In this document: one piece after another, positions 57,193-62,832 of the stretch | Layout: each line of letters begins with the position of its first letter | Numbering within the stretch: position 1 is the first letter of the stretch | Source of the DNA: Escherichia coli | Lineage (GTDB): Bacteria; Pseudomonadota; Gammaproteobacteria; Enterobacterales; Enterobacteriaceae | Length of the DNA stretch: 64,000 nucleotides | Strand: one strand, 5' to 3' | Assembly: GCA_023061495.1 (NCBI GenBank) | Contig: GCA_023061495.1_3643.1 | Made by a program: the position numbers and the translations under genes | Notes under the pieces: generated by a model | The model's database searches: none | Seen by the model: the letters and a program-made list of their open reading frames with translations, nothing else | Told to the model about the DNA's origin: nothing

Positions 57193-58398
57193 ATGATTTT
57201 CATCTACGAACATTTCAAAACCCGTAAAGAAGCACGAGACCGCCGTGCAGAACTTGAGAAGAAAGGTTTCACATGCGCTATTGAGAAAGGTGACACAACC
57301 TGGACACTGGCAGTGGGTGCCCCAGAGGTGTTCGATCCTGACCGTGACAGCGTCTGCTACACCCGTGAGGATTTTGAAACCCGTGAAGAGGCCCGTTTAT
57401 TTCGATATGGGTTGGAAGATAACGGTAAGTACGCCATGATCTTAGACTTAGGCGAAGGTTCCGTTAAACGTTGGGGCGTGGTATACCCACTGTGTGTTGT
57501 TCACGGTGTGGGGTTCACTGGGGTAGCAGTTAAGTCAGAAGAACCTTCGGTAGAAGTCAAAGACCCGGTGCTGGAGGTGGTGAGCAGTGTGTCTCAGCAA
57601 CAGACTCGAAGCATCGAGCCTTTGGTAGTTATTTGCGGAGAACTCCTCCAGATCACCTGTAACGAAGGTATTTTTGAAATTCGCCGTAGCGAAAGTGAGG
57701 AAGTTTACCAGAAAGTCTTCGACCATATCTCTGTTCAGGAATATGACGAGGCAATTGGTGAAATCCTTATCTGGCTGGAACGCAAGAATGAGTTCACTAC
57801 ACTGGCAGACAACCTGATTATGAAAGATGGTAAGCTCTACTACTACGGTGTAGAGATGCGATCTACCATTGCAAAGAAAATTGAGAAAGATTATGCAGAT
57901 GGAACACTGGATGACCGCTATGTGAAATTCCTAGTTCGCCTGTTACGCAATCCGTCTGCAAAATCTGTAAACATGCTCTACGATTTTATGCAGGCAAACG
58001 ACATTCAGATTGCAGAAGATGGTCGAATCATTTGCTACAAAGGGGTTCAGTTTAACGGCGACAAGTGGGTGGATTGGCACAGTGGTAAAGTCCCACAATA
58101 CCAGGGTGCTTTTGTATCCATGCCTCGTAACTTTGTAGAGGATGATCCGGAAGCTGCATGCTCTTATGGCCTGCACTGTGCCAGCAAAGAGTATGCAAAG
58201 AGCTACGGCACTGTGATGACGGTTATGGTTGACCCTGCTGATGTAGTCAGTGTACCTTACCAACACAACAGCGCTAAGTGCCGTGCATGCCGCTACGAAA
58301 TCGTAGTAGCTCCAGAATCGCGCAAAGATGGAGACCCAATCGAGTACGTGATTGACCGCGACGGCAACACTATCGACATTATCTACGAGGAGGCGTAA
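57193..58398 (+). CDS. rIIB: rIIB-like protein
   Basis: 401 aa; C-terminal block (NPSAKSVNMLYDFMQANDIQIAEDG...SMPRNFVEDDPEAACSYGLHCASKEYA...DPADVVSVPYQHNSAKCRACRYEIV) matches the T4 rIIB C-terminal region as recalled from memory. Confidence 0.55.
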   Translation: MIFIYEHFKTRKEARDRRAELEKKGFTCAIEKGDTTWTLAVGAPEVFDPDRDSVCYTREDFETREEARLFRYGLEDNGKYAMILDLGEGSVKRWGVVYPLCVVHGVGFTGVAVKSEEPSVEVKDPVLEVVSSVSQQQTRSIEPLVVICGELLQITCNEGIFEIRRSESEEVYQKVFDHISVQEYDEAIGEILIWLERKNEFTTLADNLIMKDGKLYYYGVEMRSTIAKKIEKDYADGTLDDRYVKFLVRLLRNPSAKSVNMLYDFMQANDIQIAEDGRIICYKGVQFNGDKWVDWHSGKVPQYQGAFVSMPRNFVEDDPEAACSYGLHCASKEYAKSYGTVMTVMVDPADVVSVPYQHNSAKCRACRYEIVVAPESRKDGDPIEYVIDRDGNTIDIIYEEA

Positions 58399-59768
58399 TG
58401 GAAAAAGGGCAGTACGATGTAGGCACAGATGCTGCCCTTGTTGCAATCATGAGTGGTGAGAATGTCTTCGTAAGTGGACCGGGTGGAACCGGGAAGACAT
58501 ATCTTATCAACATGATCCAGTCTATGTATGGAGACTCTTGCATAACGGTTGCCCCGACAGGGGTAGCCGCTTTAAACGTTAATGGAGCAACAGCGCACCG
58601 AACTTTCGATCTTGCCGCAGGTGTGAGCATGGAGTCAGACTGGACAGCAATAAGGGCAAAAACAGCAAAGCCTCTGAAAAGCAAGGCATTTACCATCCTA
58701 ATTATCGATGAAATCTCTATGATCCGTGCTGACAAGTTCATAGAGATGGATAGAAAACTTCGCTTTCTTCGGAAAAATGACAAACCTTTCGGAGGCATTC
58801 AGGTACTATTGTTTGGAGATTTCTACCAAGCACCTCCAGTTGTCTCTTCCATGGAGAAAGAAGCCTACTTCAACTTCTACCACACAGATCTGTGTTGTTA
58901 TACAGAATCTTGGGAGGATCTTAATCTTCACAATATAGCCTTAGTAGACCAGTTCCGTCAGGAATCTGTTCGCTTCGCCACAATGTTGAACTGTGTTCGT
59001 GAAGGTCGCCGCATAAAAGAGGTTGTAGCAGAGCTTAACACTCGTTGCTATCATGGTGGTGTCCCAACAGATGCCTTGACCATCTGCGCCACCAATAAGC
59101 AAGCAGAGGAGGTGAACAGACGTTTCTATGATGCCATCCAGGCCCCAGAGAAGACCTACATTGGTAAAATGAAGGGTAAGTTCCCTTCCACACTGCCTGT
59201 GGAGCAGGAAATGAGGCTGAAGATAGGGATGAAGGTTATGATAACCTCAAACGATGTTGACCCTACTCACAAAGTTCCGTATTATGTCAACGGGACACGT
59301 GCCACAGTGGTAAAATTCAAGACCAAATCCGTGGTAGTTGAGCTAGAAGACGGGGCACAGGTTGAAATTGAGCCGAGATTGTGGGAGAATAACGAGTACA
59401 AACCTTCCCAGAGGTACAATATTGCCGAAAGGAAGATGGAGAAGTTCATAGAGAGGGTTGTGATCGGGTCTTATGAGCAACTTCCTTTGAAATCTGGGTA
59501 CGCAGTAACATCTCATAAAAGTCAAGGACTTACGTTAGATTGTTACAACCTAGACCTCGGAAAGAACGGAGCTTTCTCTCCCGGAATGACGTATGTTGCC
59601 TTGAGTCGGGTTAAGACGATACAAGGAATAAACTTGTTGCGTCCATTAAGAGAGGTGGATATTATTGTTGACCCGCGAGTCGTAGAGTTTTATAATACAA
59701 CTTTCCCTGGCTTAGACGAGAAGGTCAGGAAAGATTTTGAAACTAGAGCAGAAAAGGGGGACGTATGA
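58398..59768 (+). CDS. SF1B DNA helicase (Dda/RecD/Pif1-like)
   Basis: 456 aa; Walker A GPGGTGKT; Walker B IIDEISM; motif VTSHKSQGLT; start overlaps upstream stop. Confidence 0.7.
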   Translation: MEKGQYDVGTDAALVAIMSGENVFVSGPGGTGKTYLINMIQSMYGDSCITVAPTGVAALNVNGATAHRTFDLAAGVSMESDWTAIRAKTAKPLKSKAFTILIIDEISMIRADKFIEMDRKLRFLRKNDKPFGGIQVLLFGDFYQAPPVVSSMEKEAYFNFYHTDLCCYTESWEDLNLHNIALVDQFRQESVRFATMLNCVREGRRIKEVVAELNTRCYHGGVPTDALTICATNKQAEEVNRRFYDAIQAPEKTYIGKMKGKFPSTLPVEQEMRLKIGMKVMITSNDVDPTHKVPYYVNGTRATVVKFKTKSVVVELEDGAQVEIEPRLWENNEYKPSQRYNIAERKMEKFIERVVIGSYEQLPLKSGYAVTSHKSQGLTLDCYNLDLGKNGAFSPGMTYVALSRVKTIQGINLLRPLREVDIIVDPRVVEFYNTTFPGLDEKVRKDFETRAEKGDV

Positions 59769-60103
59769 GTTTGTGGAGAAATATAGTTAACTACGTGTGT
59801 GGCAATCCAAATCCTGAAGAGAAGGATGTTGTGATTCACGATTTTACTAAAAGATCTCGTGAAAAAGACCTCCTGCTAACAAAGGTGATCGATAAAGACC
59901 CTATAGGAGACTGGGCAGGGTTTGCGTTTACATCTGACAAGTACACCTTTAACAAAGGTGACTACCTCGTTGTGGATTTTAACGAAGACATAGAGGGTGC
60001 TGAACCTTACTATCAGACCCTTGTCGTTGCAGAGTGTGTTGAGCTCTCTGCAAACATGCACAGTTTGATTCTTTTTGAGCTTGACTCTGAAGACCTTCAG
60101 TAG
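59765..60103 (+). CDS. hypothetical protein
   Basis: RBS AAGGGGGA; overlapping start/stop (ATGA); 112 aa. Confidence 0.5.
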   Translation: MSLWRNIVNYVCGNPNPEEKDVVIHDFTKRSREKDLLLTKVIDKDPIGDWAGFAFTSDKYTFNKGDYLVVDFNEDIEGAEPYYQTLVVAECVELSANMHSLILFELDSEDLQ

Positions 60104-60163
60104 TAAGATGTGAGTATAAAGGGGAGGAGTTACTCCCCACAAAACCGAGGAGAGCACCAAACG

Positions 60164-60466
60164 ATGAAGCGTTATAAACCATACACTTTTGAAATCGATT
60201 TCGAACTTGACGATATGCTCACTGTAGAAGCTCAGGCAGTTGTCCAGTTGCCAGATCCGGAGTGCCGTGATTCTGATGTTGATTATTATGGATTTAGACA
60301 GATTACCGATGTGCATGTTTACCACAACGGGGAAGAGGTGGGCTTTCACCAGCTGCCAAACGATCTGCGCCACTCGATTTACAAACGTGCAGCACGTGAA
60401 CTAGAGTCCTATCTGGATGCAGCGACAACGGCAGCAGCATTTGCTGAAGAAGTAGGGGGATTCTAA
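60164..60466 (+). CDS. hypothetical protein
   Basis: ATG 60164 preceded by GAGGAGAG, chosen over the track's GTG at 60110 which lacks an RBS; 100 aa. Confidence 0.45.
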   Translation: MKRYKPYTFEIDFELDDMLTVEAQAVVQLPDPECRDSDVDYYGFRQITDVHVYHNGEEVGFHQLPNDLRHSIYKRAARELESYLDAATTAAAFAEEVGGF

Positions 60467-60872: not shown

Positions 60873-61355
60873 ATGTCAGACTTCATGTGGAAGGTAGGCT
60901 ATGCCTCTCCTGAAATGTGTGAGGCTTGCTTTGTGAAAATAGGCCGCGAGGATATTGACAAAGTGATCCTTAAGTTTCGTGATGTGGCTGTAATCGGAAA
61001 CCGAGTGCTTAAGCACTTAAAGAATCTGAAGCTCACCAAGAAGAAGTTCTTCGGACTTTTCGAAGAGAAAGTTGATGCTTGGGCACATTGCATTCAGGAA
61101 GCCAAATCTCACTACAGTGCTATCGTTACCCCAGAACGGGTAGCCAAGATGGAAGGATTTATCAACAGCACAGAGTTTGAGTGCCTAAAGGCTGCTCTTG
61201 ATAGTTATCCAAAGTGCCTCAAACACCTTGACAAGTATGTAGAGAAGGATGGGGAAATGTATCTCACCCTGGACGCATACTATGAGATGCAAGAAATTTT
61301 AAATTTAGATTTGACATTGGTATCCACCGAGTATACAATAGGTATCCGGGTTTAA
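60873..61355 (+). CDS. hypothetical protein
   Basis: RBS AAGGGGGAG; 160 aa; terminator downstream. Confidence 0.5.
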   Translation: MSDFMWKVGYASPEMCEACFVKIGREDIDKVILKFRDVAVIGNRVLKHLKNLKLTKKKFFGLFEEKVDAWAHCIQEAKSHYSAIVTPERVAKMEGFINSTEFECLKAALDSYPKCLKHLDKYVEKDGEMYLTLDAYYEMQEILNLDLTLVSTEYTIGIRV

Positions 61356-61361
61356 CACTAG

Positions 61362-61388
61362 GCCCTGCCCGAAAGGGTGGGGCTTTTT
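61362..61388 (+). terminator. rho-independent terminator (GAAA loop)
   Basis: CCCTGCCC-GAAA-GGGTGGGG hairpin followed by CTTTTT. Confidence 0.55.
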
Positions 61389-61406
61389 GCATTAGGAGAC
61401 AGCAAA

Positions 61407-62168
61407 TTGAAATTTATCTACAAAGAACACTACCACAAAGGTGTTGTGTGGAGTCTATTTGACGGGTCTGGGGGTGCAGTCATTGACTGGGCAAAAGCTG
61501 GGTATCTGTGCCTGTGCTTTAATGCAGAAGGGGCTGACCATGGCAGTTATGCAGAGGTGATAACCGATCATCCCAATATTCACTATGTGGATTATTGGAT
61601 TGACCCGTGGTTCCCGCAGGAAACTTTTTGCATGTATCCGGCTCCAGACTTTATTCTTGCATTTCCTCCGTGCACGCATTTGGCGGTATCAGGTGCTGCG
61701 CATTTTAAGAAAAAGCTGGCTAAGGACCCTCTGATCCAAATTAATGCTGTAAAAGATGCTAGGGTTGCAGAAGAGTTGGGAGAGATTTACGATTGCCCGT
61801 GGCATGTAGAGAATCCTGTGGGTGTTATGTCCACACTGTGGCGCAAACCTGATTACCGTTTTCACCCTTCGGATTATGGCGGGTATTTACCGGAAGATGA
61901 TGTAAACCCATGGTTTCCTGAATTTATAGCTCCACGTGATGCCTATCCAAAAATAACTTGCGGATGGATAGGTAATGGATTTATAATCCCGGCCACAAAA
62001 CCTGTCCCGCAAATAGTTGACGTGGTTAGCGGGTATTCCATGCAACACGCCAAGCTGGGTGGAAAGAGTGCAAGAACGAAGATGATTCGAAGCCTCACAC
62101 CACGTGGCTGGGCAAAAGCTGTATTCTTAGCAAACGAGCCTGTAGTAAGGAGAAGGGCCAATGGTTGA
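61407..62168 (+). CDS. DNA C5-cytosine methyltransferase-like protein with atypical catalytic motif (PCT instead of PCQ)
   Basis: Probable TTG start 61407 preceded by AGGAG; the track's GTG at 61377 lies inside the terminator hairpin; motifs LFDGSGG (motif I-like), FPPCTHLAVSG (motif IV-like), VENPVG (motif VI-like); short at 253 aa. Confidence 0.4.
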   Translation: MKFIYKEHYHKGVVWSLFDGSGGAVIDWAKAGYLCLCFNAEGADHGSYAEVITDHPNIHYVDYWIDPWFPQETFCMYPAPDFILAFPPCTHLAVSGAAHFKKKLAKDPLIQINAVKDARVAEELGEIYDCPWHVENPVGVMSTLWRKPDYRFHPSDYGGYLPEDDVNPWFPEFIAPRDAYPKITCGWIGNGFIIPATKPVPQIVDVVSGYSMQHAKLGGKSARTKMIRSLTPRGWAKAVFLANEPVVRRRANG

Positions 62169-62832
62169 CTGGAGCAAGTATTTCACCTACAGTGATGGCA
62201 AACTGTTCTGGGCGTACACTGCAAAAGCCGGAAGGGGCAGGGTTATACATTACGCAGGTGAGGAGGCCACAGGTACAGATAAAAATGGCTATAGAGTGAT
62301 ATATGTGTCAGGTGTTGGGAGTGTTCGTAGGCATAGAATAGTTTGGGAGATGCATTACGGGGAGATACCTGAAGGACTTGTTGTGCGGCACAAGAACGAC
62401 ATAGCAGGCGATGATAGGGTAGAGAACTTAGTCCTAGGTACACAGGGTGATAATGCAAGAGACATGATCTACAGTGACAAACTGAGCATTAACAATACCT
62501 CAGGGTGTCGAGGTGTACGCTACCATAGAGGCATAAAAAGATGGATTGCATCTGTTGGAGACATATACTTAGGGTGTTTTAAGACAAAAGAGGCTGCAAT
62601 TGCATGCAGAAAGTTATGGGAGAAGGGAAAATTCGTCCCGCAAGAGTTGGATGTTAGAAACACTAGCGGTGTAACAGGGGTGTTCTATGTGCCGAGCTCT
62701 GGAAGGTGGAGAGTCAGGGTGCAAAGCGGCAAAAAGAGAAAGAGCTATGGCACTTACAATACTTTAGAAGAAGCAAAAGCTGCACGAGATAGAGTGATGA
62801 AAGAGATTGAGGAGTTTAAAGATGGGGAATAA
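62161..62832 (+). CDS. HNH homing endonuclease with two AP2 DNA-binding domains
   Basis: 223 aa; HNH region HRIVWEMHYGEIPEGLVVRHKNDIAGDDRVENL; two AP2-like units (SGCRGVRYH...KRWIASV; SGVTGVFYV...RWRVRVQ); AGA/AGG/ATA-rich codon usage; overlaps both neighbouring genes. Confidence 0.6.
   Translation: MVDWSKYFTYSDGKLFWAYTAKAGRGRVIHYAGEEATGTDKNGYRVIYVSGVGSVRRHRIVWEMHYGEIPEGLVVRHKNDIAGDDRVENLVLGTQGDNARDMIYSDKLSINNTSGCRGVRYHRGIKRWIASVGDIYLGCFKTKEAAIACRKLWEKGKFVPQELDVRNTSGVTGVFYVPSSGRWRVRVQSGKKRKSYGTYNTLEEAKAARDRVMKEIEEFKDGE

Follow-up and report, generated by a model that had tools for sequence, protein, structure and literature searches.

The closest tested relative of the gene described here is the Dcm of coliphage K42, a strain of phage KarlJaspers with 95.4% genome identity. 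K42 mutants that escape retron Ec86 all disrupt a 711-bp 'Dcm-like C5 cytosine methyltransferase' gene; its expression raised 5-methylcytosine (5mC) in multicopy single-stranded DNA (msDNA), as measured by liquid chromatography-mass spectrometry, and activated the retron, while a C82A/E128A/K175A/K176A quadruple mutant did neither, and mutating the CCWGG site in the msDNA abolished defence (bioRxiv 10.1101/2023.08.16.553469). A second described system is CmoX, a natural phage DNA cytosine C5-carboxymethyltransferase that uses carboxy-S-adenosylmethionine (carboxy-SAM); its selectivity depends on an Arg (R350) that replaces the motif-X Asn304 of M.HhaI, and CmoX enzymes are recognised by SPPC together with that Arg and usually co-occur with a phage-encoded carboxy-SAM synthase, CmoA (PMC12783734). 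Here we analyse a gene at positions 61407-62168 of a 64,000-nt stretch of Escherichia coli assembly GCA_023061495.1 (contig GCA_023061495.1_3643.1), called the window below. The window belongs to an rV5-like coliphage (Vequintavirus), and a 2.1-kb segment holding the gene is 94-96% identical to Vequintavirus genomes. The gene very probably encodes an active orphan DNA cytosine-5 (C5) methyltransferase of a compact phage 'Dcm-like' family (PHROG 757); for the window protein itself we infer the activity, the target motif and the biological role.

A tested homologue, a large family and a shared fold

The KarlJaspers (Bas06; MZ501090) Dcm, QXV82308.1, is the 236-residue product of a 711-bp gene (L004:38588-39298). 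The window protein is 54% identical to it over 235 residues (E 3e-86), and the residues mutated in the K42 study can be placed individually: C82 in PPCT, E128 in ENP and K175/K176 in KKT of the KarlJaspers enzyme correspond to C89, E135, K182 and I183 here. Because K42 Dcm raised 5mC, an enzyme with PCT and ENP can be a working 5mC methyltransferase, and these catalytic variants are compatible with 5mC formation. The K42 preprint was, we take it, later published under the title 'DNA methylation activates retron Ec86 filaments...'.

The gene is ordinary and already known: it belongs to a very large phage and prophage methyltransferase family for which annotation already exists. PHROG 757, 'DNA methyltransferase', matches residues 2-251 (E 1.1e-86), and a 90%-clustered protein collection holds 3,544 homologues at E <= 0.001, with 1,015 family representatives at 50% identity. 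Matches by tblastn fall in 1,504 phage records, which include Drexlerviridae, Dhillonvirus, large myoviruses, phAPEC8-like phages and many Klebsiella phages. An identical protein stands in NCBI as WP_247178478.1, 'DNA cytosine methyltransferase [Escherichia coli]', and Phage 203/206 has it too, labelled a hypothetical protein; orthologues in phages of the BASEL collection, including EmilHeitz, are annotated 'Dcm-like C5 cytosine methyltransferase'. With the gene publicly annotated and a close family member experimentally tested, it carries little weight as a discovery. More useful is that Pfam PF00145 and NCBIfam miss a very abundant phage family, which accounts for frequent automatic 'hypothetical' calls. 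We took 72 diverse relatives, each 29-55% identical to the window protein, as the basis of the conservation counts given below; PF00145 matches five of them, weakly (best E 0.0067).

We built an AlphaFold2 model from a 33-sequence alignment. The model has a mean pLDDT (predicted local distance difference test) of 89, a pTM (predicted template modelling score) of 0.89 and an alternating strand/helix core. Its best Foldseek matches are the catalytic domains of DNMT3A/B (E about 1e-6, probability 1.0); cytosine-5 methyltransferases head the fold search, and CmoX is also among the matches. The best matches in a structure search of BFVD are phage proteins named DNA-cytosine methylase. Judged by this model, the window protein has the C5-methyltransferase fold, a Rossmann-like catalytic domain.

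Catalytic motifs and rival chemistries

An earlier note, made from the bare sequence, had called the product of 61407-62168 an orphan C5-methyltransferase-like enzyme with recognisable motifs I, IV and VI, and had asked whether these would survive alignment. That general reading has held up, through the fold search and through the 54%-identical homologue, with PPCT and ENP, of the 5mC-forming K42 enzyme. LFDGSGG, FPPCT and ENP are all read in the gene; M.HaeIII aligns in register over motifs I and IV (LFSGAGG, PPCQ), and E. coli Dcm over motifs I, IV and VI (LFAGIGG, FPCQPFSLAG, LENV).

Motif I comprises the first strand (residues 13-17 in the model) and a glycine-rich loop, and its LFDGSGG (residues 17-23) is the expected loop for binding S-adenosylmethionine (SAM). 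Cys89 in motif IV is the predicted catalytic nucleophile, the counterpart of C82 in K42/KarlJaspers Dcm. Glu135 in motif VI is the counterpart of the ENV glutamate and of E128 in the K42 enzyme, with Pro replacing Val. Conservation of these motifs over the 72 relatives far exceeds chance: in motif IV, P87 is retained in 68, C89 in 69, T90 in 63 and G96 in all 72; in motif VI, E135 in 70, N136 in 69 and P137 in all 72. The earlier note treated PCT in place of PCQ as an oddity of this protein. That view must be given up, as the count for T90 makes Thr a family hallmark; the family-wide signatures are FPPCT(D/H)LAVSGA, whose first F is present in 62 of the 72, and ENP. Since PCT is the hallmark of a huge annotated family, its presence does not point to unusual chemistry.

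The C-terminal half is less direct. An hhalign comparison of the family profile with one E. coli Dcm sequence is statistically weak (E 0.036) and spans the N-terminal half only, so the C-terminal motifs cannot be mapped by sequence. The K182-x-T184 strand is proposed as the motif VIII counterpart, by way of a structural superposition published for the homologue; Lys182 is K175 of K42 Dcm, and K176 becomes Ile183 at a position that varies across the family. The conserved block LGGKSARTKMIRSLTPRGWAKAVFLAN, with its near-invariant Arg228-Ser229 (Arg228 in 70 of 72 relatives), would be the counterpart of motifs IX/X, with I-R228-S-L-T-P and the long helix after it standing in for motif X. Codon differences from the EmilHeitz orthologue (23 synonymous, two non-synonymous) show that the gene is under purifying selection.

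The CmoX fold match and Arg228 raise the question of whether this C5-methyltransferase scaffold installs another group, for instance 5-carboxymethylcytosine made with carboxy-SAM from the host CmoA. CmoX owes its selectivity to an Arg in place of the M.HhaI motif-X Asn (PMC12783734), a near-invariant Arg sits in the block that we assign to motif X, and E. coli does encode CmoA. Against this, the 54%-identical homologue belongs to a family that yields 5mC, the window protein has FPPC where CmoX has its hallmark SPPC, the window holds no CmoA homologue, and no ligase partner lies nearby. The best structural matches, DNMT3A/B, use SAM, and the placement of Arg228 on motif X is itself indirect. 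DNMT3A/B presumably also carry Arg at that position. CmoA homologues occur in 86 phage records, mainly Erwinia, Pseudomonas, Synechococcus and Staphylococcus phages; Escherichia is not among the listed groups, the unlisted groups hold one record each, and no Vequintavirus group appears although about 100 Vequintavirus records exist. We considered a carboxymethyltransferase as the leading explanation and rejected it on FPPC, the lack of CmoA and the 5mC made by the homologue; it is very improbable.

A DNMT2-like cytosine-5 methyltransferase with the DNA-methyltransferase fold could act on host or phage tRNAs, but the homologue methylates DNA, and the gene is set among those of DNA replication here and close to a phage Dam in a prophage. 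The ranking of fold matches, the conservation of catalytic residues and the activity of the homologue count against it as well, and we give it only the slightest chance.

Several observations do weigh against an active DNA C5 methyltransferase, against carrying the K42 results over to it or against a broad anti-restriction role for it. The Pfam scan that the earlier note had proposed as a check came out negative, PF00145 giving no match to the window protein even at E up to 10, and an NCBIfam scan of the protein gave no methyltransferase match. A sequence search of the PDB is marginal, with M.HaeIII at E 1.1 for the protein and 0.39 for the family profile. Neither the canonical QxRxR of motif VIII nor the GN signature of motif X (GN-S/A-V) occurs in the sequence. 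One of the four residues changed in the tested enzyme, K176, is Ile183 here, and that mutant changed all four residues together. The K42 study assumed the CCWGG target from the host Dcm and worked in dcm+ MG1655, where host Dcm did not trigger the retron (bioRxiv 10.1101/2023.08.16.553469). The segment most likely to read the target differs from that of the K42/KarlJaspers enzyme. Literature searches found no report of 5mC in Vequintavirus DNA, and methylation and restriction both go unmentioned in the paper on the rV5 genome. Lastly, the BASEL paper calls Vequintavirinae 'exceptionally susceptible' to the restriction-modification (RM) systems tested.

Some of these points would also suit a catalytically dead or purely DNA-binding relic with a structural or regulatory role, in the manner of DNMT3L. 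The missing QxRxR and GN, the silence of Pfam and NCBIfam, and Ile in place of K176 all speak for it, as does Asn39 at the end of strand 2, a position that is Asp in most of the family. Yet the active K42/KarlJaspers enzyme has Asn there too, and position 183 is the variable one noted above. Cys89, Glu135, Asn136, Pro137 and Arg228 are retained and near-invariant in the family, purifying selection is strong, and the same fold ranking, residue conservation and homologue activity that disfavour an RNA enzyme apply here also. A dead relic is thus highly unlikely, and an active DNA C5 methyltransferase remains our reading of the gene.

Target recognition, mechanism and role

The earlier note remarked that the protein is short, with little room for a target-recognition domain, and this is borne out: only about 21 residues (196-216) are available. 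They separate the motif-VIII-like strand from the C-terminal conserved block, and in the model they are the only candidate target-recognition element. The corresponding segment runs to 24-44 residues across the family and is hypervariable. Because it differs between the two enzymes, the target motif assumed for K42 is not transferable to the window protein, and no mapped target for the family came to light in literature searches for CCWGG with orphan phage cytosine methyltransferases or for 'Dcm-like'.

Site counts over the whole window help little. CCWGG, with 85 sites, is under-represented at 0.64 of Markov expectation, and GTAC (0.60), CTAG (0.65) and CCGG (0.71) are under-represented too, while GATC (0.89), GAATTC (0.94) and GATATC (0.97) are not. 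The depletion of CCWGG says nothing firm about specificity, since it is no stronger than that of the unrelated palindromes GTAC and CTAG. We put forward, tentatively, that the specificity of the Vequintavirus enzyme may be other than the CCWGG of host Dcm, and that its own target may be set by the 21-residue segment; the compact clade would then be a series of enzymes with minimal recognition domains and diverse or relaxed specificities. A variant in which the invariant motif-X-like Arg permits a cofactor other than SAM is less likely.

We drew a catalytic scheme from the family and from established C5 methyltransferase chemistry. The LFDGSGG loop would bind SAM and the target cytosine would flip out of the duplex. 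The Cys89 thiolate of PPCT would then attack C6 while Glu135 of ENP protonates N3, the methyl group would pass from SAM to C5, and beta-elimination would free the 5-methylcytosine. Sequence choice would depend on residues 196-216, possibly aided by a conserved insert at 150-177.

The likely benefit is that replicating phage DNA would be shielded from particular cytosine-sensitive restriction or defence nucleases. A known cost is that such methylation can trip retron Ec86 (Eco1). That family enzymes act as retron triggers bears on the choice of host and phage for therapy or engineering; the Ec86-sensitive phages reported are Drexlerviridae, Siphoviridae and Demerecviridae, not Vequintavirinae.

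The earlier note suggested an anti-restriction methylase, and for this enzyme we would state such a role only conditionally. Given the exceptional susceptibility of Vequintavirinae to the tested RM systems, the enzyme is unlikely to work broadly against restriction, and any protection would be narrow. The purpose of an active 5mC enzyme could also lie outside classical anti-restriction, in a mark on phage DNA that serves replication, packaging or the timing of genes, or in countering defences other than RM. That susceptibility favours such a purpose, as do the position of the gene inside a replication module and the persistence of CCWGG sites, which are only mildly depleted; the BASEL paper, furthermore, found no simple link in Drexlerviridae between methyltransferase genes and restriction resistance. 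Narrow protection is nevertheless compatible with these data, given an RM set that offered it no relevant challenge. By our reading, EcoRII and other enzymes sensitive to cytosine C5 methylation are absent from that set. The classical function of orphan phage methyltransferases is protection, and this also counts against a purpose outside anti-restriction, which we consider rather doubtful.

The replication module and comparison with known systems

Coordinates of the gene, its motifs and its surroundings are given in Table 1.

Table 1. Features of the methyltransferase gene and its surroundings, in window positions
Feature	Position	Strand	Basis or remark
PIF1-like helicase, upstream	58398-59768
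Sigma-70-like promoter match, TTGACA-17-TACAAT	61311..61339	+	11/12; consensus match only
GC-rich hairpin then T run, terminator-like, between the upstream 160-aa ORF (open reading frame) and the methyltransferase gene	61360..61385	+
Ribosome-binding site AGGAGA, 7 nt 5' of the TTG start	61394..61399	+	Read from sequence
Coding sequence, 253-aa compact DNA cytosine-5 methyltransferase (predicted)	61407..62168	+	Sequence, family and annotation matches
Motif I, WSLFDGSGG, residues 15-23	61449..61475	+	Aligns with M.HaeIII LFSGAGG and Dcm LFAGIGG
Motif IV, FPPCTHLAVSGA, residues 86-97, with Cys89 and Thr90	61662..61697	+	Alignments, conservation
Motif VI, HVENPVG, residues 133-139, with Glu135	61803..61823	+	Alignments, conservation
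Motif-VIII-like strand, DAYPKITCGWIGNGFIIP, residues 178-195	61938..61991	+	Model strand 184-189, conservation
Short hypervariable segment, residues 196-216	61992..62054	+	Lowest model confidence (pLDDT about 70)
C-terminal conserved block, LGGKSARTKMIRSLTPRGWAKAVFLAN, residues 217-243	62055..62135	+	Conservation; model helices 222-229, 233-252
HNH-AP2 homing endonuclease, downstream	62161-62832	+	HNH_3 E 5e-17, AP2 E 2e-12
DnaB-like primase/helicase, downstream	starts 62822

The methyltransferase gene sits in the DNA-replication module of the rV5-like coliphage. The best DNA matches of the region are Escherichia phages EmilHeitz and HeinrichReichert (BASEL collection) and Phage 203/206, and 117 phage records match it at >= 90% identity. 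Between 16 (DNA search) and 39 (protein search) 'Campylobacter phage' records, such as A147, C15 and A12a, are unannotated, 135-143 kb long and about 95% identical to rV5-like coliphages, which suggests mislabelled hosts or contaminating coliphages.

The 253-codon ORF begins with TTG and ends with TGA, as read from the sequence, and the EmilHeitz orthologue is annotated with an identical start and length (762 nt). The strong terminator-like hairpin has 11 pairs followed by TTTTT and lies directly 5' of the ribosome-binding site; the promoter match falls within the end of the upstream ORF, with the hairpin immediately 3' of it. The hairpin may either end upstream transcription or fold as a stem at the 5' end of the methyltransferase mRNA.

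Four small proteins of unknown function are encoded between the PIF1-like helicase and the methyltransferase gene. The program called the ORF at 60110-60466 (+) from a GTG start, giving 118 residues; the true start is probably an internal ATG at 60164, for a product of 100 residues, as annotated in EmilHeitz and HMD-6. Its product matches phrog_4240 (unknown function) and, weakly, the C-terminal part of phrog_1573, 'DNA methyltransferase' (E 3.9e-5), but is far too small for a DNA methyltransferase. EmilHeitz has an additional gene of about 1 kb here, bas49_0070, 'putative N6 adenine methyltransferase' (L001 5960-7365), between the homologues of the window ORFs 59765-60103 and 60164-60466, that is, at window 60103-60164. 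The window phage and HMD-6 both lack it. With bas49_0070 only in EmilHeitz of the three compared, methyltransferase content varies among near-identical Vequintaviruses.

The earlier note saw no restriction partner nearby, and we likewise found no restriction endonuclease within about 3 kb upstream or in the 1.8 kb that the window still covers downstream. The HNH-AP2 neighbour is no such partner but a mobile homing endonuclease that most relatives lack. Its ATG overlaps the methyltransferase stop (ATGGTTGA), and it is present in four of the 117 related phage records; in phage HMD-6 the methyltransferase gene runs straight into the primase/helicase start, the two overlapping at the same ATGG. 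The endonuclease is a mobile insertion exactly at this ATGG junction of the methyltransferase and primase/helicase genes.

An E. coli chromosomal member of the family lies in the nin-like region of a lambdoid-type prophage (GCA_053566455.1) and is an orphan there too. In the stretch L006 4494-6747 this member, P0073, comes two genes after a phage Dam (PF05869) and is followed by NinG, an HNH-AP2 endonuclease, RusA and an antiterminator. The succession of a compact Dcm-like gene and an HNH-AP2 homing endonuclease is thus seen again in a phage backbone unrelated to that of the window.

Set beside the described systems, the window protein is nearest to K42/KarlJaspers Dcm. Both are orphan genes of virulent coliphages, homologous over their full length, compact (253 residues here, 236 there) and with PPCT, ENP and K-x-T motifs. 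They differ in phage family, Drexlerviridae for K42/KarlJaspers and Vequintavirinae here, and in the variable segment, which is of a 'DNPGW' type in K42/KarlJaspers and a 'GYSxQH' type in the window protein. CmoX (PDB 8yf3) shares the fold but has SPPC in place of FPPC and is usually accompanied by phage CmoA and the ligase CmoY, partners that the window protein lacks. The DNMT3A and DNMT3B catalytic domains are 12-15% identical to it, a likeness that implies no evolutionary closeness; DNMT3 enzymes have ENV, an RxR motif VIII, a heterotetramer with DNMT3L and chromatin-reading domains, in all of which they differ. With the classical C5 methyltransferases (E. coli Dcm, M.HhaI and M.HaeIII) the protein has in common the fold, the motif order I-IV-VI and the catalytic Cys and Glu, while it has PCT instead of PCQ and ENP instead of ENV, is without QxRxR and the GN signature, and falls below the Pfam threshold. 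It is also much shorter, 253 residues against 324-472 in the classical enzymes, with some 21 variable residues in the place of a full-size target-recognition domain.

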